Below, piece after piece: positions 1,211-55,842 of a stretch of DNA of 64,000 bases. Position 1 is the stretch's first letter, and each line of letters begins with the position of its first letter. The notes under the pieces were generated by a model that was not told the origin of the DNA, did no database searches, and saw only the letters and a list, made by a program, of their open reading frames with translations. The DNA lies in the NCBI GenBank assembly GCA_965222075.1, contig OZ244937.1, positions 3,904,001 through 3,968,000 on the forward strand, given 5' to 3'. The stretch is from Candidatus Latescibacterota bacterium (GTDB taxonomy: Bacteria; Latescibacterota; UBA2968; GCA-2709665). A program made the position numbers and the translations under genes.

Positions 1211-1288
1211 ACACACCCCCAGTTTCAGCGTTCGACCTCTCCTACCCGATGCTGTTGCCTTTACTGACCCCTGATTTCCATCCCCTCA

Positions 1289-1317
1289 AAGATATATCCT
1301 CTTTCCCGGCAGGTCAA
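1289..1317 (-). promoter_or_regulatory. Putative sigma70 promoter for the lipoprotein-DUF350 genes
   Basis: TTGACC-17 nt-TATCTT on the minus strand. Confidence 0.45.
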
Positions 1318-1435
1318 GGCGCTTGCCTATCCCCGCCTGACATACCAGCTGGATCCCAGCAGAATACCTTCCATAAGGACTAAATTCATATTTATAAAAA
1401 CTTATTTTGATAAAACTGGCGCAGGCGTTGCTGTT

Positions 1436-2779
1436 TCAGACCTGTTGTAACGCTGTTCTCACTGAGGATACGAGTTGGTCAATGTGGGTATCCTCCATAG
1501 GGAGCGAGACGTTTCCGCCCTGTTTCCAGTAGATCCCCTGGTTGAGGAGAGAGAAGGTGAGCCATTTGTGCATGGCCGCGTCGTCCTGGACGGCTGCGCG
1601 GTAGTTGCGCGGTTTTTCGGGGAGGAAGTGGACGCGGAAGAGGGAGCCTGCGACGGTGACCTGGGCCTGGATGTCGGCCTCTTTGAATACGGCGTCCAGT
1701 TTTGATCCCAGCCGCACGGTCAATGAATTCAGTTTGGCGTAGGCCCCGGGTGTGAGGATGCGAAGCGTGGCGAGGCCGGCGACCATGGCGATGGGATTGG
1801 CGTTGTAGGTGCCGGAATGCGGAATCTGGGGTGCGCCGGAGGTGGGGTCGTAGAGGGCCATGACATCGGCCCGGCCGCCGAAGACGCTGCCGGGGGTTCC
1901 GCCCGCGACGACTTTGCCCATGCAGGTGAGGTCCGGCCGGACGTTGTAGCGTTCCTGGGCGCCGCCCCGGGAGACCCTGAAGCTGATGATTTCGTCGAAG
2001 ATGAGGAGGACGCCTGCGCCTTCGGTGATTTCTCTGAGGCGGGTGAGAAAACCGTTGGCAGGGAGGGTCATTCCCGCGGCCGTGGAGAGGGGGTCCACAA
2101 TGACGGCGGCCAGATCGTTCGCATTTTCGGTGATGATTTCACCGCAGGCTTCGGGGTTGTTGAAGGGGAGGACGATGACGTTTTCCACGGCCTCGGGCGT
2201 GAGGCCCGCCGAGGTGGGAAACGAATGGGGACGGTAGGCGGGACCCAGGTCCGGACCGGGCGGGGGCAGGTAACTGACCATGACGTACTCGTCCATGCCG
2301 TGATACGCGCCCTCGAATTTGGCAATTTTATGCTTGCCTGTAAAGGCCCTGGACGCCCTGATGGCGTTCAATACGGCTTCGGTGCCCGAGCTGCAGAAAC
2401 GCACGCGCTCTAAGGAGGGTATCCGCTCGCGCAGGCACTCGGCCATTTCGACTTCAAGGGCCAGGGGACGGGAGAAGCCGGTGCCTTTTGCCACCCGGTC
2501 CTGGAGCGCACCGACGACGACGGGGTGGGCGTGGCCCAGGATGAGGGCGGTGTTGTTGTTGACGAAGTCGAGCAGGCGGTGGCCGTCTAAGTCGATTAAG
2601 TAGACGCCTTCGCCTCGGTCGGCGTAGATCGGAAAGGGGTCGAAATAGACGCCGGTGCGGGTGTTGCCGCCCGGCAGCGATGTTTTGGCCCGTTCGAACA
2701 TCTGCCGGGAGCGTGGGTTCCTGTCCATGTATTCGGCGATGAGGGCGTCCAGGGAGGCTTGTGTTTTTCGGTTTGCCAT
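1436..2779 (-). CDS. Class III PLP aminotransferase, glutamate-1-semialdehyde aminomutase-like
   Basis: LPGGNTR, LILGHAHP, FCSSGTEA, KFEGAYHG, FDEIISFR, MGKVVAGG, HSGTYNANP. Start set at MANRK after GAGG. Confidence 0.9.
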   Translation of the reverse strand: MANRKTQASLDALIAEYMDRNPRSRQMFERAKTSLPGGNTRTGVYFDPFPIYADRGEGVYLIDLDGHRLLDFVNNNTALILGHAHPVVVGALQDRVAKGTGFSRPLALEVEMAECLRERIPSLERVRFCSSGTEAVLNAIRASRAFTGKHKIAKFEGAYHGMDEYVMVSYLPPPGPDLGPAYRPHSFPTSAGLTPEAVENVIVLPFNNPEACGEIITENANDLAAVIVDPLSTAAGMTLPANGFLTRLREITEGAGVLLIFDEIISFRVSRGGAQERYNVRPDLTCMGKVVAGGTPGSVFGGRADVMALYDPTSGAPQIPHSGTYNANPIAMVAGLATLRILTPGAYAKLNSLTVRLGSKLDAVFKEADIQAQVTVAGSLFRVHFLPEKPRNYRAAVQDDAAMHKWLTFSLLNQGIYWKQGGNVSLPMEDTHIDQLVSSVRTALQQV

Positions 2780-3381
2780 TTTGCACCTCTTTTGGCTTTG
2801 CACCGGCTTGGGGGAATACAACCACAGTCGATAGACTGTCTTTCGTGCCGGATATTTCAAAAGGGCATCACACTTCGAGGTCTTTTCCCAATATAGGGAA
2901 CAAGGGCATGATATCAAGTCTTCTTTCAGATGCGCACCTTCCCTGGCGATGAGCCCGATGCGGTACAAAGCCTGTACTTCTACGCTTTACCTCTTCAAAT
3001 AAGAGGCTTCCAACCTTGTCACCTCAAGCGGCTCAGAGAATTCGTTTGACTGCGATCGCTATAGGGATTATCTTAATCTCAAGGGGGGATATGCAAAACT
3101 GTATGGTATCCGAAAAGGACAGACCGAGGTACAGAAATGGCGGCTCAACAGCCTGAGGCGCTGAACGGCTCGCTTTGATCGGCAACATCGCCCTGTGATC
3201 CTCGACGTTAGTACGCGATTTCTGAACTATAGATCCCCGTCAGTCGTGCTATCTGGCGGGGATTCTCTACACGGGTTCAGAGGTCCACGGACGTTCCGAG
3301 TTCCACCCTTCCCTAACTTGGAACTGAAAGAATCAAACCTATGGACATACCTACGCGCGAAGTGTTCGGCAACATCACGCC

Positions 3382-3747
3382 GAAGGGCCGATCACGCTGC
3401 ACGACCCCTGTTACCTGGCGCGGGTAAATGGAGAGGTCGACGCCCAGCGAAAAGTGATCGGTGGGGTTGCTCAGCGTTCCTTCCGCGAAATGCCCCGTCA
3501 CGGCGAGAAGACCTTCTGCTGCGGCGCCGGCGGCGGACGCATGTGGTTCGAGGAGGACCCCAAACAGCGGGTATCGCACCTGCGCGCCCGGGAAGCAGTG
3601 GCCACCGGCGCCGAAACGCTCTGCACCGCCTGCCCGTTCTGCCTCAACATGATAAGCGACGGAATGGCCGCTGTCGAAGGTGGCCAGAATGTGGAAGTGC
3701 TCGATATTTCGGAGGTATTGGTCAATAGCCGAAAAGGAGAATGCTGA
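3382..3747 (+). pseudogene. C-terminal CCG-domain remnant of an Fe-S oxidoreductase (FadF/HdrD-like)
   Basis: In-frame ITLHDPCYLAR...FCCGAGGGRMW...CTACPFCLNM. The same frame has a stop at about 3325 and there is no N-terminal Fe-S or membrane part. Confidence 0.8.
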
Positions 3748-25718: not shown

Positions 25719-26828
25719 TTACCCTGCATCGGGCCGCTGCTTGAACTGACCCGCCTGCCGCAGCGCTTCAACCCCCGACCCCCTCTCGGCCAGCGGAAAA
25801 TGCGCCGGCCGGTTGCCTGCAAGCTGAGACTGGTAAACGGCCATCACCATCTCCAGCGAGCGGCGCCCCGCCCGCCCGTCGCTGCGCAGTTCCCCGCTTC
25901 CTTCCAGGGCATTCACCAACTCGTTCAGCGCCAGGACATAAGTTGACGCGGGCGGTGGATGATCGATCGGTGTCAATTTCAAAGAGTTCCACTGGAACCC
26001 GCTGTCCGGTTCGTACTCGTCCTCTACCGCCCGGTAGAGATTTACCTGTTCTCCCAAAAAACGGATCACTCCCTCCGTCCCCCGCAGCTCAAACGCATTA
26101 TCCGTATAAGCTGTCAGTTCCGCGCCATGTACCAATCCTGTCGTCCCATTCTTGAACTTCATAAATGCCGCGCTGAAGTCCTCCACGGCCCATGGCCGCA
26201 TCCGCTGCTCGGCCATTCCGCAGAGCCATGCCACCTCGCCGGCGAACATGTCCATCAGATCGAAGTAGTGGGTAAAATCGTGAAGCAGCGGCCCTTCGTT
26301 CTCGCTGCGCCACCAGGGCGCGGGTTTGCCCCCGTCCATATAGCAGTAGATGTGATTGAGGTCTCCGAGCGCACCCTCCTGCAGCAGCTGGAGGCCCAGG
26401 TTCCACTCCGGACTCCATCGGCGGTTGTGATTAATCTGCAGCGGAATCCCGACATGGTCGCAGGCCGCAACCATGCGGTCGCATTCCTCTAACGACAGCG
26501 CCATCGGTTTCTCACAGATAATCGCCCTCGTAGAGGAAGCCGCCGCGCACGCCTCCACCATCTCGCAGTGGAGTTCCGGGTGGGTGGCGACAATACAGAT
26601 ATCCGGTTTCACCTCCTCCAGCATCTGTCTGTAATCGTGGAAAAGGGCGTCAACCCCGTAGCGCTCCCCAAACGCCTCCAGCTTCTCACGCCCGCGGTTC
26701 ACACCCGCCACAAGCTCGCAATCTCCGCTTTGTTGAATGGTATCCGCGTGATTGTCCGGCAAATCGCCGAAGCTGAACTGGTATCCCACGCGCCCGGTGC
26801 CGATCAGCGCGATCCGGTACTTAGCCAT
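25719..26828 (-). CDS. Gfo/Idh/MocA family oxidoreductase
   Basis: IALIGTG, CEKPMA, NHNRR, THYFD. Confidence 0.9.
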   Translation of the reverse strand: MAKYRIALIGTGRVGYQFSFGDLPDNHADTIQQSGDCELVAGVNRGREKLEAFGERYGVDALFHDYRQMLEEVKPDICIVATHPELHCEMVEACAAASSTRAIICEKPMALSLEECDRMVAACDHVGIPLQINHNRRWSPEWNLGLQLLQEGALGDLNHIYCYMDGGKPAPWWRSENEGPLLHDFTHYFDLMDMFAGEVAWLCGMAEQRMRPWAVEDFSAAFMKFKNGTTGLVHGAELTAYTDNAFELRGTEGVIRFLGEQVNLYRAVEDEYEPDSGFQWNSLKLTPIDHPPPASTYVLALNELVNALEGSGELRSDGRAGRRSLEMVMAVYQSQLAGNRPAHFPLAERGSGVEALRQAGQFKQRPDAG

Positions 26829-26949
26829 GATATCCTCCTCGAATAAAAGTAGCCGACCTCTGTGTCCCCAGCCAGACAGCAACTTCTGACACACCAAAAT
26901 AATCAATCATTTGTTCCCAGCGGCACCAAGGCGCTGTTCTATCCGTCAT

Positions 26950-26978
26950 AAAAAAACCGCGATAGCTTGGTATTGCGG
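26950..26978 (-). terminator. Putative intrinsic terminator of the MTase-kinase-REC-MBL operon
   Basis: Minus strand CCGCAATA-ccaagc-TATCGCGG (one mismatch) followed by T7. Confidence 0.6.
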
Positions 26979-27024
26979 CACAAAAATGGGTAAATAGCCA
27001 ATCCGGACCTGAACGGTCAATAGC

Positions 27025-28011
27025 TTATCGACATAGGGCCGTTGGAGCAACCTCTGTGATAAATGACTGGTGATCAGAATAATGTGGCAAAATCGTATTG
27101 AAATCATCAAGATCGATTAAGATCGTTCCTGCACAGCACTTACGACATTCACGGCCTTGGGCGAATACATCGTTCAAGTGCTTTGGAGACGAGCCTGGAA
27201 GCGATGACGCGCAGTGCTCCGAAAGCTGAGTACAAGCGATCCGGACATCAGACACCTGTTCTCGGACAGCGGTCACAATCTCTGGCCGAGGTGCTCCATG
27301 TCGCCCCCGTCCGATCGAAAAAATGACCATAGCCGGTGATACGATCTCACAAAGAGTTCGGGCAAACACGGCCATATCCATGGAACCCGTCCTGCCACCA
27401 TGATGGGGAAATATAACAACCGGGGCAGTCGCATCCACTCCGGAATTGCGAAGGTCGTCCAGGCCAATGCTGTCCAGGTCTCCTGGAAGAAGTGCTATTG
27501 GGTTCCCGTCTTTTAACAAACGCGCTACTACACTGACTGAGTGTCTGGTAAGTTTTCTTCCTCGCTTATCCCTGCTACCCGGCCCCTTAGCAGCCAGATA
27601 CTTGCTGGGACCAAGAATTTCAATCTGCACCTCACTTCTATCAAATCCTCCTCTACTGTCTCTGGTCAACGACGTGTCAAAATCAAGTTTACCTGCAATG
27701 TCCGCACGGTCAAGTTCGTAAAGAAGATCACCCCAAAGTCTCGATCCCTTTTCTGAGTCAGTGTTCAACCGTACAGACCTAACTCGAAACTTGCTGGAAG
27801 ACAATAACTGGACCAGTCCCCCGATATGGTCTTCATCCGCATGAGAGATCAGTACAGCGTCGATTGTAGTAACTCCACTCTCTTCCAGGTACTCAAGTAA
27901 GGAACTCCCCAGACCTGTGTCGATGACTACCACACCTTCAGAATCGATAAGAATCGCGCTGTTTCCATGTCCTACATCAAGAATCGCCAGATTATGCTTT
28001 GGTACAGACAT
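27025..28011 (-). CDS. ComEC/Rec2-like metallo-beta-lactamase-fold hydrolase (putative nuclease effector)
   Basis: LDVGHGNS, VIDTG, ISHADEDHIGG, LPGD, FPHHGG; Cys-rich tail; no TM segments. Start set at MSVPK (28011), 10 nt after the REC stop. Confidence 0.85.
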   Translation of the reverse strand: MSVPKHNLAILDVGHGNSAILIDSEGVVVIDTGLGSSLLEYLEESGVTTIDAVLISHADEDHIGGLVQLLSSSKFRVRSVRLNTDSEKGSRLWGDLLYELDRADIAGKLDFDTSLTRDSRGGFDRSEVQIEILGPSKYLAAKGPGSRDKRGRKLTRHSVSVVARLLKDGNPIALLPGDLDSIGLDDLRNSGVDATAPVVIFPHHGGRTGSMDMAVFARTLCEIVSPAMVIFSIGRGRHGAPRPEIVTAVREQVSDVRIACTQLSEHCASSLPGSSPKHLNDVFAQGRECRKCCAGTILIDLDDFNTILPHYSDHQSFITEVAPTALCR

Positions 28012-28021
28012 TGACAAGCCC

Positions 28022-28684
28022 TTAGTCAGCTTCCCAGCTATCGAAGTAGAGGTCTTCATGATTCTCGGCTCCAACATTAACCTGAGCATGAAACCGTTTT
28101 TCCAGCTTAACAAGAGATCGGATATCATTAGGCAAATCATCAAAAGAAACGCGGATCTTTTTTCTTGGATTCCAACCTGAAATGATAACGTAGAAATAAT
28201 CTTCACCAGGTTCCACTTCCTCGACCCGAACAAGCGTTCTCCAAGGCTTTCGACTCGGCTGGTACTGGCCATCGAACTCTTGGATGCAACGCTCAAATCC
28301 TCTTGCGATATTGTCCGGGTCAAGTTCGTCAGGCTTCAAAAGCGCTGGAATAAAACGTCTGCGGCTCCTCATAAGGCTAATGTCCACATCGGTGTAGGTT
28401 GTACATAGTACTGCTGGGATAATCTTATAACACTCAGCGACTATTTCATCACCATTGAACCTCGCATAATGTCCTTTCTTCCGCAGATGATAGTCGCAAA
28501 GTACAGCATCCACTTGAGTTGGTAATTGTTGTAAAAATCGCTGCAGGTTGTTCAGAGGGCCAGCCTCTTGTACAGGAAACAGCCCTAGTTCCTCTAAGGA
28601 GTATTCATAGCTTTCTCTGGCTCTTTCATCATCGTCAACAATTGACACCCGTTCGATTCTTGTGCTTTCAATCTGAAGTGGCAT
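28022..28684 (-). CDS. Receiver (REC) domain protein with uncharacterised beta-rich C-terminal domain
   Basis: IVDDD acidic pocket, LCD64 phospho-acceptor, NG loop, T95 and K117-P; about 80-aa non-HTH tail. Confidence 0.8.
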   Translation of the reverse strand: MPLQIESTRIERVSIVDDDERARESYEYSLEELGLFPVQEAGPLNNLQRFLQQLPTQVDAVLCDYHLRKKGHYARFNGDEIVAECYKIIPAVLCTTYTDVDISLMRSRRRFIPALLKPDELDPDNIARGFERCIQEFDGQYQPSRKPWRTLVRVEEVEPGEDYFYVIISGWNPRKKIRVSFDDLPNDIRSLVKLEKRFHAQVNVGAENHEDLYFDSWEAD

Positions 28685-28687
28685 AAT

Positions 28688-30754
28688 TCATACTCCGAGG
28701 ATAGGTAACTCAATAACAATTTCAGCGCCACCAAATTCACTGTGCTCAACCGCATCAACTTCCCCTCCGAGATCATTCACCGCATCCCGAACAATTGTAA
28801 GACCAAGTCCTGTTCCGTTCTTTTTGGTTGTGTGACCAGGCAACCAGATATCTTTCTTACTTATCCCCTCAATGCCAGGACCGTTGTCAAGAACTCGAAG
28901 CGTAAAAACATTGCTCTCAACCTCGGTACGGATCAGAATCTTTCTCTTATCCGTGGTCGAACGTTCAAAAGCTGTCAGGCTGTTATTAATCAAATTTGTG
29001 AGGATCGACTCCACGGACGCCTCACTTCCACGCAAATAAGGTGCACCCTTACACAGATGGATATCAACATCGACATCTCGCCCATCAAGAAACGGATTGA
29101 ATGTTTCAATCACACTATCAATAACAGCATGAAGGTCGACACGAGATATTCTGCGCTTTTCATGGTCGACGAGTTTAAGCGTCGCTGCCCCAAGCACTGC
29201 AAGGCTTCCAATAGCTCGAACGATCCCTTTAACTGGTTTCATAAGCAACTTGTCGTATGCATTGCCGAGTTCCTTCTTCGCCCGTCTCTCAATCGCCTTA
29301 ATCGACAATGTGATTATCTTTATTGGGTTGGCATTCGATTCATGTGCAAAGGTTGCAGCCGTAATTCCAGCAGTGCTGAGCGTCCTGTAAAGTTGCACCT
29401 CTTTGTGTAGCTGCTGCACCTCTCGATCCCGCGAACGGTCATAAGCATCCACAGCTTGCTTTAACTCCTCTTGCAAATCCTCAGGTACTTTACTGATAAC
29501 ATCATCGAGATTTATTTTCGATCTGCTTGTTTTCTTAGGAGCAGTGGTACGTTTTTTCGTTCTTCGCTTCTCGGCGACCTCCAACCTTCTTTTAGCCATC
29601 CATTCCATTGTATCTTGAGCAAACGACTTCATCTCGAGAAAAGCATCCGCTTCTATAAATCCGGAGCGGTCCGTCTTCTGAATAAGAAGCTCTTCTATAT
29701 CAAAGACTTTAACACGTCCAATAGCAGTATTGGTACCTGGCCGTTCCTCCGGACTCTGAACCCGACGTAGATTCATATCGAGCCAATCATTTCCAGGGTT
29801 TCCGTAGGGTATCACTCGTAGCCCATTATGATAAAGATGCACTCCACCAAATTCCTGCAGCCATGTCCGTACCTCTCCAAGCGTGGACGACCGAGTCAAG
29901 AAAGTGGACCTGTTTAAGATAAAAACCCAGAGGTCGAACTTGACAGCAGAACATCTATACGGATGTTTTTCACGCGGTACGGTTAGTTCGTCGTGATCCG
30001 CTGAGAACAGTTTCTCCCCTCGCCAGTCCACTACGGATGCTTTAGCTATACCATTTTTATCTACGGAAGCGATTAAGTGATACTCTGCGTCATCAAAGTA
30101 TCGTTTTTGAACTATCTCTTCGAGGTCTGAAAACTCCGGAGCTTTAAGAAGTGGCTTGAAGCCCTCGGGGTCATCCCCAAATGGATCGGCCAATAATATG
30201 AGCTCACGAGCCAATCGTTTAAGGTCCATCCGTCCAATTCGTATTTTCAAATCCTCTAAGTGGATCTCTGTCCCCGATGTACTTCCTTTAGAGCGTCTGC
30301 TCTTCTCAATCCTAAGCTCTACTTCGTCGACATGCTCAACGTTTTCAAAATCCTTCCAGTCAATAAGAAGGTCGTACCGGGTGGTTTTCTCCGCTCCTGG
30401 ATGTGTTGTAAGCAAAGCGGCTGATCCCATACGCAACGCCGCCAGACGACCGAGTCCCTTACTACCTGCTGGAACTCTGCCAAGCCGTGTGCGCTGTCTG
30501 GAGGATTTCTCGGATCGTCCGATAACAAGCCATCCATTTTTAATTTCATCAGCGTCCATTCCGTCGCCGTCGTCGACGACTTGGACAGATCCTCCAGGCT
30601 GGTCAGTATGGATCAATTCTATAGTGCAGGTACGTGCATCCGCATCGTAGGCATTCTTAACGAGCTCTATGATCCCTTTGTCAGGACTTGGATTTAATTC
30701 CTCGCCGAGCCGACGAAGGATATCTGTTACGAATCGTATTTGTACATTGCTCAT
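28688..30754 (-). CDS. MORC/GHKL ATPase fused to a C-terminal histidine kinase (cytoplasmic)
   Basis: N-terminal ELVKNAYDAD, DDGDGM, GSKGLGR, GTEI. C-terminal H-box FAH471E, N-box NLINNS, DNGPGI, GTGLGL. No TM segment. Confidence 0.88.
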   Translation of the reverse strand: MSNVQIRFVTDILRRLGEELNPSPDKGIIELVKNAYDADARTCTIELIHTDQPGGSVQVVDDGDGMDADEIKNGWLVIGRSEKSSRQRTRLGRVPAGSKGLGRLAALRMGSAALLTTHPGAEKTTRYDLLIDWKDFENVEHVDEVELRIEKSRRSKGSTSGTEIHLEDLKIRIGRMDLKRLARELILLADPFGDDPEGFKPLLKAPEFSDLEEIVQKRYFDDAEYHLIASVDKNGIAKASVVDWRGEKLFSADHDELTVPREKHPYRCSAVKFDLWVFILNRSTFLTRSSTLGEVRTWLQEFGGVHLYHNGLRVIPYGNPGNDWLDMNLRRVQSPEERPGTNTAIGRVKVFDIEELLIQKTDRSGFIEADAFLEMKSFAQDTMEWMAKRRLEVAEKRRTKKRTTAPKKTSRSKINLDDVISKVPEDLQEELKQAVDAYDRSRDREVQQLHKEVQLYRTLSTAGITAATFAHESNANPIKIITLSIKAIERRAKKELGNAYDKLLMKPVKGIVRAIGSLAVLGAATLKLVDHEKRRISRVDLHAVIDSVIETFNPFLDGRDVDVDIHLCKGAPYLRGSEASVESILTNLINNSLTAFERSTTDKRKILIRTEVESNVFTLRVLDNGPGIEGISKKDIWLPGHTTKKNGTGLGLTIVRDAVNDLGGEVDAVEHSEFGGAEIVIELPILGV

Positions 30755-32061
30755 TCTTCATCGCTCCACCAGGGTAGATCAGCAAGAGCCGACACAGTCA
30801 AGTGCCGACAACGAATGTATTGATCTAACCATTGGGTTGTCTGTGGCTTCCGAAGAACGCGGAGTAGTTCCCGACAAGCCTTAACGGTTCCGTCTTTTGG
30901 AAGCAAAACAAGCAGATGATTTTCAACCGCCACGGGCCTAGCGTTATTAATAATCGTTCCAAGTGCTCGATGCTTGTCTCCTGGTCTTGAAGTCCGGCGA
31001 ACCACAACGAATGGCGGTGAAAAAACTCGACCCTCAAACCTTCGATTATTTGAAACTTCACGGACCATCTGCCACGGTGGTAGATTACGGGCATGTATGA
31101 ATGGATACCAAGAACCCTGGTGCGGATCTCGATAATCAACTACTGAACCAACACAAACATCAAACCGCTCACCCACGCACTCAGGGGTCACCCTTGTTGG
31201 TTGATTCCACCGAAATCCGCCCGAAACTATTGATTTCTTCTGAATTTCAATATCTAGAACAAATACGTCAACGTCCGCCCACCGATCAAACTGACCGTGA
31301 AGTTGGAGCCGATGTATATATGACCGTGATTCTATGAACTTTCGCCATCTCAAATATCGTGATCCACTTCTGAGTACATCAGGCAATATAGCTACGATCC
31401 GCGTGCCGACATTTGCGTGCAAAATACAGGCTTCCAAGAAGAGCGCCGCTGAGTTTACTTTTCCACTGGACCAGTAACAGCTTTTGGGGGCGTCTACCAA
31501 TCCGAACGGTGGATTTATGACAATGTGGGTTGCTGCTTTGATTGCATCGTGATCTGTCAGCCCACACCTGCTAACAATTTTAGGAAACGTTCTGTGGATT
31601 TGGGGAATAGTACATCCATCAAGTGGAATGTTGTTACGAAAGGCAGCAAGTATGAGTCTTGCCTTAGCGGCCCGAATGAACTCTGGATGAAGGTCGCGCC
31701 CCATAATTTGGGCACCCCAACTTCTCAGAGTAGAAGTGAGATTCTGTTTTTTACTCAACCGCGCAGCGCAGGCAATGAGCAGATCACCCGTACCACATGC
31801 CGGGTCCAAAATGACTGATCGATCATCTAATGTACCTATAAGTGATGCCACGGCAACTTGTGACAATTTTGAGCCCGTGAAAAAAGCCCCTGCTGTCCGC
31901 ATATCTGACAATGAAACAAGCCTGCGAAGTTCATGCGCAGGCTGACCATCCAGTGCGTCATCAATACGCGCAATTATATCTCTATTGTCTAAAGGCTGCA
32001 CCATCTCGGCAATTAAGGTATCGAGATCGTCGAGGTATGGGATGAAATTCTTCACGGACAC
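30751..32061 (-). CDS. Amino (N6-adenine) DNA methyltransferase, gamma-class motif order
   Basis: GAFFT (motif X), ILDPACGTG (motif I), VINPPF (motif IV), C-terminal TRD-like region. GTG start 7 nt after GGAG; the stop overlaps the kinase ATG. Confidence 0.88.
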   Translation of the reverse strand: MSVKNFIPYLDDLDTLIAEMVQPLDNRDIIARIDDALDGQPAHELRRLVSLSDMRTAGAFFTGSKLSQVAVASLIGTLDDRSVILDPACGTGDLLIACAARLSKKQNLTSTLRSWGAQIMGRDLHPEFIRAAKARLILAAFRNNIPLDGCTIPQIHRTFPKIVSRCGLTDHDAIKAATHIVINPPFGLVDAPKSCYWSSGKVNSAALFLEACILHANVGTRIVAILPDVLRSGSRYLRWRKFIESRSYIHRLQLHGQFDRWADVDVFVLDIEIQKKSIVSGGFRWNQPTRVTPECVGERFDVCVGSVVDYRDPHQGSWYPFIHARNLPPWQMVREVSNNRRFEGRVFSPPFVVVRRTSRPGDKHRALGTIINNARPVAVENHLLVLLPKDGTVKACRELLRVLRKPQTTQWLDQYIRCRHLTVSALADLPWWSDEE

Positions 32062-32107
32062 TACATCTCTCCAACTTGCTCTTAGACCGTCTATTTGAAA
32101 CAACCAA

Positions 32108-32156
32108 TACAATATAACTTATTGTAAAATATAGGACAAATAGCAAGTATCGTCAA
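32108..32156 (-). promoter_or_regulatory. Sigma70 promoter plus palindromic operator candidate for the four-gene operon
   Basis: TTGACG (32156-32151)-17 nt-TATATT (32133-32128); perfect inverted repeat TACAATA-taact-TATTGTA at 32108-32126 over the predicted TSS. Confidence 0.65.
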
Positions 32157-32398
32157 GCGGTGATCAATCGAGGCCGGACAAGAACCGACAGAACGATTCT
32201 CCCAATTATAATATACACCAAGGAGATCAGCACCATTAAAATGAATATGGTGCGAGGAAGCCTCCGCAACCCATACATGGGTTTTCCAGGGGGGGCAAGT
32301 AGACAGCGGTCCAGCTCAGCAAGAGCAGAAGTGGCCGTCACGTAAACACTTCCAGCCGAACAACGATCGAACAAACGTCCCGATAAAATGACAGGAAA

Positions 32399-33058
32399 CT
32401 AACCATCCAGCTCAACCGCCCGCCAGAGGTACCAGCTTGCTACGGAGCAATAGGGCCGCCACCGCTGGCCGTAGTCCTGAACTTCAAGCGGGCTGGGCAT
32501 GTCCTCCATATCGTACGTCAGCATAAATCCCTTCCGGACCCCCAGATCGTTCACCGGCAGCACATCGGGGCGGCCGAGTTGAAAGATAAGCATCATCTGC
32601 ACCGTCCATTCACCCACGCCCCGTACCTGGATCAGTTGCGAGATAATCTCATCGTCGTCCATCGGGTTCAGCTTCCGCCGGGGTGGCACAACACCCTCAA
32701 GCGTCTTCAAAGCCAGATCCTTAACCGCAGCCACCTTCGCCCGCGACATCCCCGCCGCGCGCATCGCATCGTCCGGCGTCTTCAGAACCTGCTCGGGCCG
32801 GGGAAATCGCCCCCCGGGAAACAGCGCCAGCACCCGGCTGTAAATCGTCCCTGCCGCCTTCCCGGAAAGCTGCTGGTAGATGATAGCCCGCACCAGCGCC
32901 TGAAACGGGCTCACCCCTGCCCTCATCTTAAGTGTGAATGGTCCCACACGCTCAATAAGCCGCCCCAGGCGTCTATCCGCCCTGGAAAGCGCATCAACCG
33001 CCACGTCAGGGTCGTAGTCAAGCCCCAAAGATCTCCCCCATTTCCGGCACTCGACCAT
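32399..33058 (-). CDS. alkA: DNA-3-methyladenine glycosylase II (AlkA/HhH-GPD family)
   Basis: IIYQQLSGKAA, RGVGEWTVQM, PDVLPVNDLG, WRPY.SVASWYLW. Confidence 0.9.
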   Translation of the reverse strand: MVECRKWGRSLGLDYDPDVAVDALSRADRRLGRLIERVGPFTLKMRAGVSPFQALVRAIIYQQLSGKAAGTIYSRVLALFPGGRFPRPEQVLKTPDDAMRAAGMSRAKVAAVKDLALKTLEGVVPPRRKLNPMDDDEIISQLIQVRGVGEWTVQMMLIFQLGRPDVLPVNDLGVRKGFMLTYDMEDMPSPLEVQDYGQRWRPYCSVASWYLWRAVELDG

Positions 33059-33825
33059 CAGGCCAGCCCGCTCGGCGCCAGCACCAGCCGCTCCGCATTT
33101 TTATAGGCTACCTGCTCCCGCTCCTCCTCCGTAATCTCCGCCGCCGCCAGCAACGCAGGGAACGCCATCGGCTCGTACAGAGGCGAATCCGTACCAAACA
33201 ACACCCGGTCCGCACCCACCTCGCGCACCACCAAACTGATCATACCCGTCCGAATCGCCCGTGCCGTGCCCATATCCGTATAGAGGTTGCCTGTCTTGCA
33301 ATCCTGCAGCGCATCAATCGCCTCATATGTCTGCCCCGGCTGCCCCGCACCGAAATGCGCTGTAATAATCGTAAGCGTCGGAAACCCTTCGGCCAGCCGC
33401 CGCAGACGGCCGGGCGCTGCGTAAGACTCGTTCTCCCCGTGAGACAGAACCGGCAGCCCGAGAGGCTCCAACTTCTCAAACAACCGGAATGAAGATTTGA
33501 TATCCGCCGGATACTTGTGCTGCACCGGATGGATTTTGAACCCCGCAACTTTCGGATGGTCCTTGAACCGCTCCAACAGCTCCAGCGACTCACGCATCTT
33601 CAACGGATTCAACACCAGCCACACGAGCAGATGATCCAGCTTCTCCGCCTGCTGGATGGTCCACCCATTTCCGTACGTCAACTCCGTAAACAGGGCGGAC
33701 CCGGACGTCACCACCGTCCGCTCGATGCCCGCCCGTTCCTGCAACGCCACAAACCCTTCAGCCGTAAACGTCGTAATCTCATCAAACCACGGCCCCAGGT
33801 GGGCATGAGTATCAATATAACGCAT
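33058..33825 (-). CDS. Amidohydrolase_2 family metallo-hydrolase
   Basis: IDTHAH, KIHP, AHFG, LFGTDSP. Confidence 0.88.
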   Translation of the reverse strand: MRYIDTHAHLGPWFDEITTFTAEGFVALQERAGIERTVVTSGSALFTELTYGNGWTIQQAEKLDHLLVWLVLNPLKMRESLELLERFKDHPKVAGFKIHPVQHKYPADIKSSFRLFEKLEPLGLPVLSHGENESYAAPGRLRRLAEGFPTLTIITAHFGAGQPGQTYEAIDALQDCKTGNLYTDMGTARAIRTGMISLVVREVGADRVLFGTDSPLYEPMAFPALLAAAEITEEEREQVAYKNAERLVLAPSGLA

Positions 33826-33852
33826 GGAATTCATCCTCCTGTCGATTAGAAT

Positions 33853-35220
33853 TCAGGGAAGGGTGTGGCCGGGCCAATCTTCAATTCCCACTTGCTCCAC
33901 AGCCTTCCCCACCGCATCGACCAACCCGTCCACGTGGCTGTTCTCCATCGGCAGCGACAGCGCGCTCATAAACAGGTCGTTGCTCGGGAAATACCCCTGC
34001 TCCAGCAGCGCCAAGAACACCCGGTGCGTCATCTCCTTGTCTGCGTGGGCAAGGCTGCGGTAGTTCACCAGCGCTTCGCCAGTAAAGTGAACGCTGAACA
34101 GCGACCCCGTGCCCACCGCCTGCGCGGCGATTCCTTTTCCGGCAAACAGATCGTTCAACCCCTCGCGCAGCCGGTCGCCCAGTCTGTTCAAATGCGCGAA
34201 CGCCTCAGGCGTCAACTGCTTCAACGTCGCAAACCCCGCGGCCATCGCAACGGGATGCCCGCTGAACGTGCCGCTCTGGAAGAACCCTGTGCTTTCCTGC
34301 GACGTGTCCAGCAAATCCATAATATCCGCCCGTCCCCCGAACGCCCCCACCGGGAACCCCCCGCCGATCACCTTGCCGTACGTCGTCAGATCAGGCACGA
34401 TCCCGTAATACTCCTGCAGCCCGCCCATCCCCACCCGGAAGCCCACGATCTCATCGAAAATGAGCAGCACATCGTTCCTCCGGGTCATCTCTCTGACGGC
34501 CCGGACAAACATCTCCTGCGGCGGCAGAATGCCTGCCTTGGGGTCGAAAATCACACAGGCCAGCTCATCCCGGTGCCGGGTCACAAGCCGCCCCACAGAA
34601 TCCTCATCGTTATAGGGCAGAACGATCACTTCCCCGGCCGCGTGTGGCGACATCCCCCCCGCCGTAGGCACGGAATGCGGCTCGGTCTCTGGCCCCGCCA
34701 CCTCTACAGGCGGCTCCACGCTCACCTCAACCACATCGTGGCTGCCGTGATACCCGCCCTCGAACTTGGCAATCTTGGGCCGGCCGCTGACCCCTCGCGC
34801 CAGCCGAATGGCGTGCAGCGTTGCCTCCGTACCCGAGTTACAAAACCGGATCCGATCCAGCGACGCCACCCGGCGGCACATCTCCTCGGCCAGTTCCACC
34901 TCGTTGCCTGCCGGCGCGCTCAGCGCAACCCCCCGCGCCATCTGCGCTTCAACCGCCGCCATCACCGCCGGATGCCGGTGGCCCAGAACCAGCGCCGTGT
35001 GGTGGGTGTTGAAGTCCACAAACCGCCGCCCGTCCACATCGTACAGATAACACCCCTCCCCCCGTTCCATCGTCAGCGGATACGGCCTGTAAAAATAGGC
35101 CCCCTTCACCCCACCTGGCATCACCCTCCCCACCCGCTCGAAAGCCGCTTCAGAACGCGGGCTTCCTGCCCGATACAGGTCCTCCAGCGAGACCTCAGGT
35201 TCTGCCGCCGTCTTTTCCAT
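33853..35220 (-). CDS. Class III PLP aminotransferase, GSA-aminomutase-like (second paralog)
   Basis: FCNSGTEA, KFEGGYHG, FDEIVGFR, YGKVIGGG, QSGTFSGHP. Confidence 0.9.
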   Translation of the reverse strand: MEKTAAEPEVSLEDLYRAGSPRSEAAFERVGRVMPGGVKGAYFYRPYPLTMERGEGCYLYDVDGRRFVDFNTHHTALVLGHRHPAVMAAVEAQMARGVALSAPAGNEVELAEEMCRRVASLDRIRFCNSGTEATLHAIRLARGVSGRPKIAKFEGGYHGSHDVVEVSVEPPVEVAGPETEPHSVPTAGGMSPHAAGEVIVLPYNDEDSVGRLVTRHRDELACVIFDPKAGILPPQEMFVRAVREMTRRNDVLLIFDEIVGFRVGMGGLQEYYGIVPDLTTYGKVIGGGFPVGAFGGRADIMDLLDTSQESTGFFQSGTFSGHPVAMAAGFATLKQLTPEAFAHLNRLGDRLREGLNDLFAGKGIAAQAVGTGSLFSVHFTGEALVNYRSLAHADKEMTHRVFLALLEQGYFPSNDLFMSALSLPMENSHVDGLVDAVGKAVEQVGIEDWPGHTLP

Positions 35221-55744: not shown

Positions 55745-55842
55745 TGGCGGGAATGTGTGGGAATCGAACCCACCCAGCGTGGGATTAGCACGCCGCAACG
55801 GGTTTGAAGCCCGCGAGGGCCACCAGTGCCCCATCCATTCCC
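55745..55842 (-). tRNA. selC: tRNA-Sec (anticodon UCA)
   Basis: GGGAATGG...CGGG-CTTCAAA-CCCG, long variable arm, GTGGG-TTCGATT-CCCAC, encoded CCA; directly downstream of selD. Confidence 0.97.

Follow-up and report, generated by a model that had tools for sequence, protein, structure and literature searches.

A mobile four-gene cassette linking a DNA methyltransferase and a MORC-like ATPase–histidine kinase to a receiver protein and a ComEC-type hydrolase: a candidate defence system

The insert and its four proteins

We analysed 64,000 nucleotides of contig OZ244937.1 (assembly GCA_965222075.1, positions 3,904,001–3,968,000) from a Candidatus Latescibacterota bacterium, referred to here as the window, and focused on four minus-strand open reading frames (ORFs) within positions 27025–32112. 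In order, these encode a DNA methyltransferase (MTase), a fusion of a MORC-like GHKL ATPase with a histidine kinase (MORC-HK), a receiver (REC) protein and a metallo-β-lactamase (MBL)-fold hydrolase of the ComEC/Rec2 type (Table 1). It is highly probable that the cassette is a mobile element of defence or of combined defence/addiction. Its genes are as tightly coupled as the initial annotation of the locus had described: the MTase stop and the MORC-HK start share an ATGA (overlap 30751–30754), MORC-HK and REC are separated by 3 nt (28685–28687), and REC and MBL by 10 nt (28012–28021).

The four genes are the entire cargo of an insert of ~5.5 kb that is polymorphic in nature, since the site is empty in G001, which is of the same genus, and junction contigs free of the island occur in sequencing runs. 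In G001, positions 108–1243 of locus L095 correspond to window 25719–26856 (94.5%) and positions 1260–3424 to window 32391–34586 (92.3%), with 16 bp separating the two flank matches. In runs X1–X3, which come from three studies, contigs fuse left-flank-like sequence to window position 32350, and island-bearing contigs are found in the same runs; in X3 the depth was 19 for a 64-nt junction contig and 5.6 for the island contig. The right edge of the insert lies between 32349 and 32390. The region is also AT-richer than its flanks, as originally noted, with a GC fraction of 0.44–0.52 in 500-nt intervals across 27000–32499 and of 0.55–0.67 on either side. Neither an integrase nor a target-site duplication is visible at the insert edges.

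The predicted MTase is of the γ class of N6-adenine enzymes. It probably starts at the GTG at 32061 rather than at the TTG at 32112, the GTG being favoured because relatives align only from residue 17–20 or 56 and because GGAGAG precedes it. Across 26 relatives (GTG numbering) there is no variation at D86 and G90 of motif I or at N183-P184, and conservation of P185 is at least 90%; the NPPF motif is present. The protein matches the PADLOC MTase_II and MTase_I models at ~1e-10, and on its own has no sequence match in the PDB. No sequence-specific endonuclease partner was found for it, in that no cassette protein has a recognised restriction-endonuclease fold. Membership of MADS was considered and rejected: mad2/MAD2 is the sole MADS component matched in PADLOC or NCBIfam, and the MTase matches to it are weak (PADLOC 2.8e-8; NCBIfam 27 bits, with the cut-off at 720).

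MORC-HK begins with a GHKL domain (residues ~1–180) followed by a conserved middle domain (~180–390), a basic linker rich in Lys and Arg, a DHp domain carrying the H-box histidine H471 and a CA domain. Profile searches of the PDB returned MORC3 (5.2e-6), MORC2 (5.5e-6) and then MutL (1.7e-4) for residues 24–153, and ZraS (3.9e-21), FixL and HK853 as the best matches for residues 433–687. The N-terminal 185 residues alone match NF050001, the BbrUII/HgiDII restriction enzyme family, at 9.2e-20, covering profile positions 9–187 of 659. Among 25 fusion sequences E30, N34, D37, D61, G63, G65, K99, K360, H471, N587, N591, D623, G625 and G627 are invariant. Indeed, the Bergerat motifs (E30, N34, D37, D61xGxG and GSKGLG) and the kinase boxes (H-box FAH471ES, N587/N591, D623xGxG and GTGLGL) are all retained without change. 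Where MORC/paraMORC ATPases have an S5-fold transducer, after the GHKL domain, the fusion has its middle domain, with the invariant motifs PYGNPGNDWLDMNL and QK360TDRSG; the PDB sequence matches of the N-terminal part end at residue 153. The protein collection also includes a 508-aa form (P0013) that covers 74% of the 688-aa ORF at 100% identity and lacks the N-terminal GHKL part; P0013 carries no source label, which is the tool's mark for a protein encoded by the window itself. The phage collection yielded one weak partial match to the kinase (30% identity over residues 12–379), in an unannotated record.

The modelled REC protein has two domains. Residues 1–135 superpose by Foldseek on 3jte, FixJ, RR468 and RssB (E ~4e-5); the Pfam Response_reg model matches the window protein at 0.0038, below its cut-off. 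In an alignment of 27 sequences D17/D18, D64 and T95 are conserved, and D18, D64, R106, I112-P113, W171 and N203 are invariant. Compared with canonical two-component pairs, then, the kinase boxes and the REC positions D17/D18, D64 and T95 are in place, and the lysine position is not conserved. The output domain is likely, from structure models, to be an OB/cold-shock-like barrel and not a helix-turn-helix (HTH); no HTH family was detected in the 27 members. Modelled alone (residues 141–220), it forms a five-stranded barrel with a predicted local distance difference test score (pLDDT) of 91.8. Its structural matches are EF-P (Z 7.0, r.m.s.d. 2.7, 65 residues aligned), IF5A (6.9) and the UNR cold-shock domain (6.7), values to be read against the Z of 7–8 that unrelated best hits typically reach; Foldseek gave YBX1 cold-shock domain/CspA at E 0.02, and an ESM Atlas search with the domain gave no usable match. 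Because these scores are middling, the fold class is likely yet says little about function. At E≤1e-30, 386 representatives of 50%-identity clusters (among 1.84 billion) match a REC profile, a number that rises to 737 at E≤1e-10; the top 150 matches are 175–248 aa long. An OB-like domain with 37% identity to REC residues 146–220 also ends a 208-aa protein in genome G020 (L048:1498–2124, minus strand) and is found in G002 (C5:545730–545942). The N-terminal part of the 208-aa protein is different, contains Cys residues and has no Pfam match; the OB module thus moves between proteins, as it is present in an otherwise different one.

The MBL protein is a putative DNase. ComEC/Rec2 MBL nuclease domains lead its PDB profile search (7e-20 to 1e-19), and it matches TIGR00361 ComEC/Rec2 at 8.1e-10 over profile positions 440–617 only, with a score of 37.5 against a cut-off of 190. 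D12, H15, D31, H57-x-D59-x-D61-H62, D178, H203-H204 and C260 are invariant in its relatives, and C267, C293 and C327 of the C-terminal Cys-rich module are at least 90% conserved. It weakly matches the PADLOC effector models LmuA (2.2e-8), RTasMBL (8.1e-8), Avs1a (2.1e-4) and PDC-M48B. Searches of the four cassette proteins with Pfam, PADLOC and NCBIfam found no PD-(D/E)xK, HNH or helicase domain, in agreement with the first description of the locus.

The REC and MBL proteins are predicted to form a complex. Three runs gave ipSAE values of 0.88, 0.88 and 0.89, with 0.34 for the best control; at least 98% of contacts agree between runs and partner pLDDT is at least 87. In calibration, the mark used was met by 116 of 157 solved complexes and by 2 of 215 mismatched pairs. 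The predicted interface involves OB residues 142–207 on the REC side, including the invariant W171 and N203 and the KPWRT strand, and residues 34–40, 60–74, 91–99 and 283–289 on the MBL side, among them D61 of the HxDxDH metal motif. Interface residues of the OB domain are more conserved than the rest of that domain (0.58 against 0.46; permutation p 0.02). These models support binding of the OB domain to the MBL protein beside its metal site.

The regulatory signals first assigned to the operon hold up in part. A promoter-like site does lie 5′ of the MTase gene, but the region has no excess of such sites (6, with 7.3 expected from shuffled sequence). The operator-like palindrome is a 7-bp inverted repeat found by eye (TACAATA-N5-TATTGTA, 32108–32126), and a repeat search found none of 8 bp or more 5′ of the operon. 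Beyond the MBL gene, a hairpin followed by U7 appears in the RNA fold, yet its z of −0.34 is not significant and a terminator scan did not report it. ORFs of 73 and 61 aa in the upstream 280 bp were considered as a fifth gene and rejected, having no Pfam match and no relatives in the fetched loci; no XRE-type gene is present in the insert, which has four genes only. Contigs of 177, 163 and 207 nt from an RNA-library run (X11) match the MBL, kinase and MTase genes with 0 differing letters. They were not counted as evidence of expression, because DNA can occur in RNA libraries and contigs cannot show transcription; nor do the stretches without contigs carry any meaning.

Table 1. Features of the insert and its surroundings in window coordinates.
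Feature	Position	Strand	Evidence or remark
Low-GC insert, ~5.5 kb, holding the four-gene cassette only	26857..32349		Empty site in G001 and GC profile
Predicted γ-class N6-adenine DNA MTase, ~436 aa from GTG	30751..32061 (longest ORF from TTG 32112)	minus	PF02384 6.4e-8
MORC-like GHKL + histidine-kinase fusion, 688 aa	28688..30754	minus	HATPase_c_3 3.3e-24, HATPase_c 1.8e-19
REC protein, 220 aa: receiver ~10–135 + likely OB/cold-shock-like β-barrel ~141–220	28022..28684	minus	AlphaFold model pLDDT 94.8
ComEC/Rec2-type MBL-fold hydrolase (putative DNase) with C-terminal Cys-rich module, 328 aa	27025..28011	minus	Lactamase_B 3.4e-14
σ70-like promoter TTGACG-17-TATATT, 5′ of MTase	32156..32128	minus	Consensus match 10/12 positions
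5+3-bp hairpin then U7, plausible intrinsic terminator	26949–26979	minus	46 nt past MBL stop
tRNA-Sec (anticodon TCA)	55745–55842	minus	Sole tRNA in the window

Conservation, distribution and neighbourhoods

The cassette is conserved as a unit. When one genome per species was scanned, 33 genome loci proved to encode a relative of the fusion (residues 1–688), with identities mostly of 46–62% and one of 79%. By record titles these span at least 10 phyla, including Acidobacteriota, Bacteroidota, Actinomycetota, Planctomycetota and Spirochaetia, with further groups in Armatimonadetes, Verrucomicrobiia, Binatia, Myxococcota/'delta proteobacteria' and Gammaproteobacteria. By tblastn with the four proteins (E≤1e-5), all four genes are found in order in 27 of the 33 loci, and HK–REC–MBL is kept in 32, the exception (L025) running into a contig end. 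This bears out the synteny that the initial annotation had proposed as a check, and the unit moves horizontally; chance co-location of the four genes is rejected by the synteny across loci. Indeed, a conjugative Burkholderia plasmid carries the same four genes beside a ParDE toxin–antitoxin pair and a ResIII/DEAD helicase, where their PGAP annotations read 'type I R-M subunit M', 'ATP-binding protein', 'response regulator' and 'MBL fold metallo-hydrolase'. Spread among relatives is patchy: a full-length REC protein is present in 2 of the 40 relatives searched, and the single same-genus relative is without it. In G009, from another genus of the same family, the cassette occupies the same chromosomal place, and cassette and flanks are equally diverged (~75% nucleotide identity).

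A DNA MTase lies beside the cassette in all 33 loci. In 28 an orthologous MTase is 5′ of the kinase; in L032 it is encoded downstream, on the opposite strand. Wherever tblastn gave no match to the MTase, which was so in four loci, another MTase is present within two genes: an Eco57I-type enzyme downstream in L017 and L024, N6_N4_Mtase with Mrr_cat downstream in L019 and, in L021 (Kocuria), an upstream Eco57I/N6_Mtase gene that is oppositely oriented. In this Kocuria locus (L021:3105–5467) the HK–REC–MBL trio is without the orthologous MTase, and the neighbouring MTase pairs with a BsuBI/PstI endonuclease and may be a separate system.

Surroundings were described by a simple count, with no statistical test, of 125 ORFs taken up to two per side of the cassette across the 33 loci. 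About 18 loci have restriction–modification (R-M), defence or mobile genes among the four nearest ORFs, such as Z1+DUF4420, HARE-HTH+Mrr, MmeI, PLD+SNF2, ResIII helicases, TrwC, TniQ, transposases and CHAT; the others have housekeeping neighbours. No recurrent fifth gene was found among these neighbours. Large ResIII/DEAD or PLD+SNF2 helicase genes lie one to two genes downstream in L042:11087–14020 (the Burkholderia plasmid), L004:10893–13430 and L011:10681–13923; most loci have none, and these genes may be accessory or belong to a separate system. In G009 the gene that comes next after MBL, downstream of it, encodes a 949-aa Type IIG-like enzyme (HSDR_N + Eco57I + TaqI_C; L099:5493–8339, minus strand), such that the closest relatives (L099 and L001:9954–10961) carry the cassette and a Type IIG-like gene as a two-system island; the window has no Type IIG part. 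Matches are fragmentary or split in L024, L029, L030 and L033, and the MBL gene is two ORFs in L009:8749–9728; gene decay or assembly frameshifts could account for this. An ISAZ013-type transposase gene lies upstream of the cassette in L024.

Relation to known systems

The closest validated system is Ambrosia (AbrR and AbrA–D). Passages of its preprint (bioRxiv 10.1101/2025.09.30.679545) describe an anti-phage system validated in Pseudomonas aeruginosa and composed of an XRE protein, an N6 MTase, a HATPase–HK, a REC protein with a winged HTH (wHTH) and a type IV HNH nuclease. According to these passages, all five genes and D60 of REC are needed, expression is infection-induced, the control proposed is transcriptional, the MTase is proposed to be part of the effector arm, and the system occurs in Gammaproteobacteria, mostly Pseudomonadales. 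Both clusters therefore unite an N6-adenine MTase, an HSP90-like HATPase sensor kinase, a REC protein and a nuclease. The cassette differs in having no HipB-like XRE gene (the fifth gene of Ambrosia), an OB-like instead of a wHTH output on REC, and a ComEC-type MBL effector in place of the type IV HNH, the cassette having no HNH. It is, moreover, found in at least 10 phyla. The two are set apart here by the description of Ambrosia and not by the AbrA–D sequences.

An older family also resembles the cassette. Bellieny-Rabelo et al. 2021 (PMC8011034) report, in the passages drawn on here, proteins with HATPase_c_3 + HEF_HK + HATPase_c tied to Response_reg_2 genes in 91.6% of 644 regions. A C5 MTase usually precedes these elements, with HNH_2 or Vsr nearby; the authors derive the family from paraMORC and propose a cytoplasmic two-component system linked to R-M. 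Shared with the cassette are the HATPase_c_3 + DHp + HATPase_c arrangement, an adjoining REC-like gene and an upstream MTase, in surroundings that for that family are rich in R-M. The window fusion aligns with HEF_HK (PF19191)-type kinases only in the GHKL (~30–33% identity) and middle domains. PF19191 does not match the window proteins at E≤0.1, although the model does match true members (L052–L054), and Response_reg_2 (PF19192) matches none of the 27 REC members at E≤10; for both models, searches of the window proteins, the 27 relatives and the window's own genome gave no match. True PF19191/PF19192 members occur in 3 of 400 sampled Gammaproteobacteria, with a C5 MTase, a kinase of ~1000 aa and a REC fusion of 555–617 aa. 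In the main text of PMC8011034 the words 'Lactamase' and 'metallo' are absent and no MBL partner is mentioned; Lactamase_B appears five times in the supplement and, in the two passages drawn on, does not stand beside the RR-like gene.

The first 400 residues of the window fusion match 28 of the same 400 Gammaproteobacteria. Nine of ten distant loci encode a fusion of HATPase_c_3 with a C-terminal HATPase_c (700–790 aa), and in L093 (702 aa) no CA domain was detected. An MTase adjoins the kinase in seven of the ten (C5 in four, HsdM-like N6 in one, Eco57I-like in two), Vsr is present in two, and the following gene, of 219–383 aa, matches Response_reg below cut-off in three. Plasmids of Campylobacter and Enterobacter harbour a further branch with a REC protein of 340–357 aa; the Campylobacter locus also has dcm. 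On conjugative Campylobacter plasmids, represented by L044 (C. jejuni plasmid NZ_CP092024.1) and 40 more plasmid records, a distantly related MORC-HK (24% identity), the 340-aa REC protein and dcm are flanked by vapD/recombinase genes on one side and by an AAA ATPase with HicAB on the other. By sequence comparison, the cassette represents a single branch within a large, modular superfamily with exchangeable MTase class and effector.

Other relationships are more partial. Passages of Iyer, Abhiman & Aravind 2008 (PMC2292703) assign MORC and paraMORC ATPases to R-M operons, with links to methylases and nucleases; in these passages 'receiver', 'two-component' and 'metallo' are absent and 'histidine kinase' occurs only in the expansion of the name GHKL. 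The cassette shares with these proteins an N-terminal Bergerat-fold GHKL ATPase linked to methylases or nucleases, and differs in that the C-terminal partner is a kinase core and not a nuclease, a TIR domain or a helicase context. The MBL fold with H-x-D-x-D-H is common to the cassette, ComEC/Rec2 and the LmuA, DRT RTasMBL and Avs1a effectors. Compared with ComEC/Rec2, the window protein is a stand-alone soluble one with a Cys-rich module and no membrane or channel parts, scoring far below the family cut-offs. Detocs is said to be a phosphorelay phage defence in which a receiver domain controls the effector post-translationally, reportedly with a TPR-type sensor kinase, a buffer REC protein, an ATP-depleting REC–PNP fusion and no MTase. 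As described, it differs from the cassette, with its MORC-like sensor, single REC–OB protein and separate nuclease; none of the PADLOC matches points to Detocs, and the REC protein has no PADLOC v2 match at all. A literature search on MORC/GHKL proteins, two-component parts and anti-phage defence found nothing closer than the works above.

The view of the four genes as a wholly unrecognised combination was therefore too strong, since the passages cited from PMC8011034 and from the 2025 Ambrosia preprint already join an MTase to HATPase_c_3/HK and REC-like modules. The branch with REC–OB and a ComEC-type MBL is undescribed so far as our searches reach; the combination is not categorically new.

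Proposed mechanism and alternatives

A defence role for the cassette, whatever its wiring, is likely. On balance, we favour the reading that the insert is a self-contained mobile defence cassette in which a relay switches a nuclease by protein contact. The catalytic centres appear intact and conserved in sequence, H471 and D64 included, consistent with the intact His-to-Asp machinery claimed at the outset. From what is known of these families, the MORC-like ATPase and middle domain would act as an ATP-driven dimerizing sensor of DNA or infection state, which would pass through the basic helical linker to the DHp/CA core, where H471 would autophosphorylate. The phosphoryl group would then be transferred from H471 to D64 of REC. 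Because the OB domain is predicted to sit on the MBL protein beside HxDxDH, phosphorylation of D64 would alter its hold on the nuclease and so switch it by direct contact, not through transcription, the outcome being either released inhibition or activation. The nuclease would then degrade DNA, either the invader's or that of the infected cell. The MTase, which seems obligatorily linked, may provide a self mark, a specificity or sensor subunit, or an effector arm as proposed for Ambrosia. In this scheme the receiver-to-effector link that was originally postulated gains from a complex prediction that passed its controls.

Several observations weigh against this reading. The evidence gathered here is computational, from sequence comparison and structure models. 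The complex score is the model's own confidence, computed from unpaired REC and MBL alignments, and the MBL side of the interface has no excess of conservation (0.47 against 0.54 for the rest of the protein, p 0.90). All the motifs first named are present and most are invariant in relatives, but K117 of the window REC protein occupies a canonical lysine position that is not conserved among the 27 sequences; Response_reg matches only 16 of these 27, all below cut-off (best E 4.3e-4), and the OB assignment has the middling scores given above. No sequence-reading domain able to tell methylated from unmethylated DNA was identified. In the window itself the insert is flanked by housekeeping genes, a GFO/IDH/MocA oxidoreductase and an HhH-GPD glycosylase, with no defence island. 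PADLOC v2 has no system-level model for the cassette, returning only generic MTase models, two REase_II models on the GHKL N terminus and weak MBL effectors, and no system-specific NCBIfam model exceeds its cut-off for any cassette protein, so that, as first supposed, neither collection has a model that covers the four genes. Moreover, HK–REC–MBL may function with no MTase of its own, or borrow that of a neighbour, because the sole nearby MTase of L021 pairs with the BsuBI/PstI endonuclease. Lastly, in the cited passages on Ambrosia, phage methylated by AbrA is still restricted.

The last point bears most directly on an account that follows classical R-M logic, in which the MTase marks self and the MORC clamp, on meeting unmethylated sites, would use the relay to let the MBL protein cut unmodified DNA. 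This account overlaps the favoured reading and adds methylation as the criterion of self and non-self. It fits the MTase found beside every one of the 33 cassettes, the ATGA overlap that couples MTase and kinase translation, the match of the GHKL N terminus to the BbrUII/HgiDII family and the MORC/paraMORC ATPases that passages of PMC2292703 place in R-M operons. On the other hand, the wider family swaps MTase classes (C5, N6 γ, Eco57I-like, N6_N4) while the kinase is homologous throughout, and with unrelated classes exchanged a matched reader of one methylated motif is hard to reconcile; no target-recognition domain is seen outside the MTase, and Ambrosia methylation left phage unprotected in the cited passages. 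Self-marking by methylation, part of the initial annotation, is hence the weakest link, because MTase class varies across the superfamily and Ambrosia, the only relative tested, behaved unlike classical R-M. We regard the R-M account as possible and hold it tentatively. The fuller version, in which phosphorylation is the decision step, such that MORC-HK reads unmethylated or invading DNA or loss of the MTase and relays this onto a REC–OB protein that sits on and directly switches the ComEC-type nuclease, is doubtful in all its parts together. In sum, what was initially observed at the locus is confirmed and its interpretation is partly supported.

A wiring of the Ambrosia type would be transcriptional, with the OB domain of phosphorylated REC binding DNA or RNA and inducing the operon and with no direct REC–MBL control. 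The infection-induced expression and REC–wHTH regulator described in passages of bioRxiv 10.1101/2025.09.30.679545 offer a precedent, all top structural matches of the OB domain bind nucleic acid, and the cassette has its own promoter-like site. This wiring is nonetheless unlikely: no HTH is found in the 27 REC members, an XRE gene is missing from the insert, the small ORFs upstream lack conservation, and the OB–MBL contact is predicted well above controls with conserved OB residues within the interface. A selfish addiction module, in which loss of the MTase or of kinase/phosphatase signalling frees the MBL nuclease on the host, is not mutually exclusive with defence and would suit a compact, self-contained insert that on a conjugative plasmid lies next to ParDE; R-M systems are established to behave in this way, as passages of PMC8011034 also cite. 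Loss of the cassette is tolerated, however, as island-free and island-bearing alleles coexist in X1–X3 and the site in G001 is cleanly empty, and addiction as the main function is improbable. Finally, a role outside defence, in epigenetic regulation, DNA repair or DNA uptake/processing by a ComEC-like nuclease under two-component control, could draw on the ComEC nuclease domains being the closest solved MBL relatives and on the housekeeping neighbours in the window, a DNA glycosylase among them. The comparison with G001 places that glycosylase outside the insert, however, and the 328-aa protein has the MBL domain only, without the ComEC membrane and channel parts. With a patchy cross-phylum spread at 46–62% identity, carriage on plasmids and frequent R-M and mobile neighbours, such a role is very improbable.

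The cassette is widespread, with 33 species-level loci in at least 10 phyla and on plasmids, and is unnamed by PADLOC v2 and NCBIfam system models. Should the fuller version set out above, with phosphorylation as the decision step, be true, no earlier case in defence would exist of a nuclease gated through protein contact by two-component signalling. The cassette extends the newly validated Ambrosia idea of two-component signalling within R-M-like immunity to another effector and probably another wiring. MORC proteins also guard eukaryotic genomes, and how they sense is poorly understood. The phospho-histidine output of the cassette would make a tractable assay for what the MORC module senses, such that MORC ATPases would gain a simple read-out, kinase activity, for their signal.

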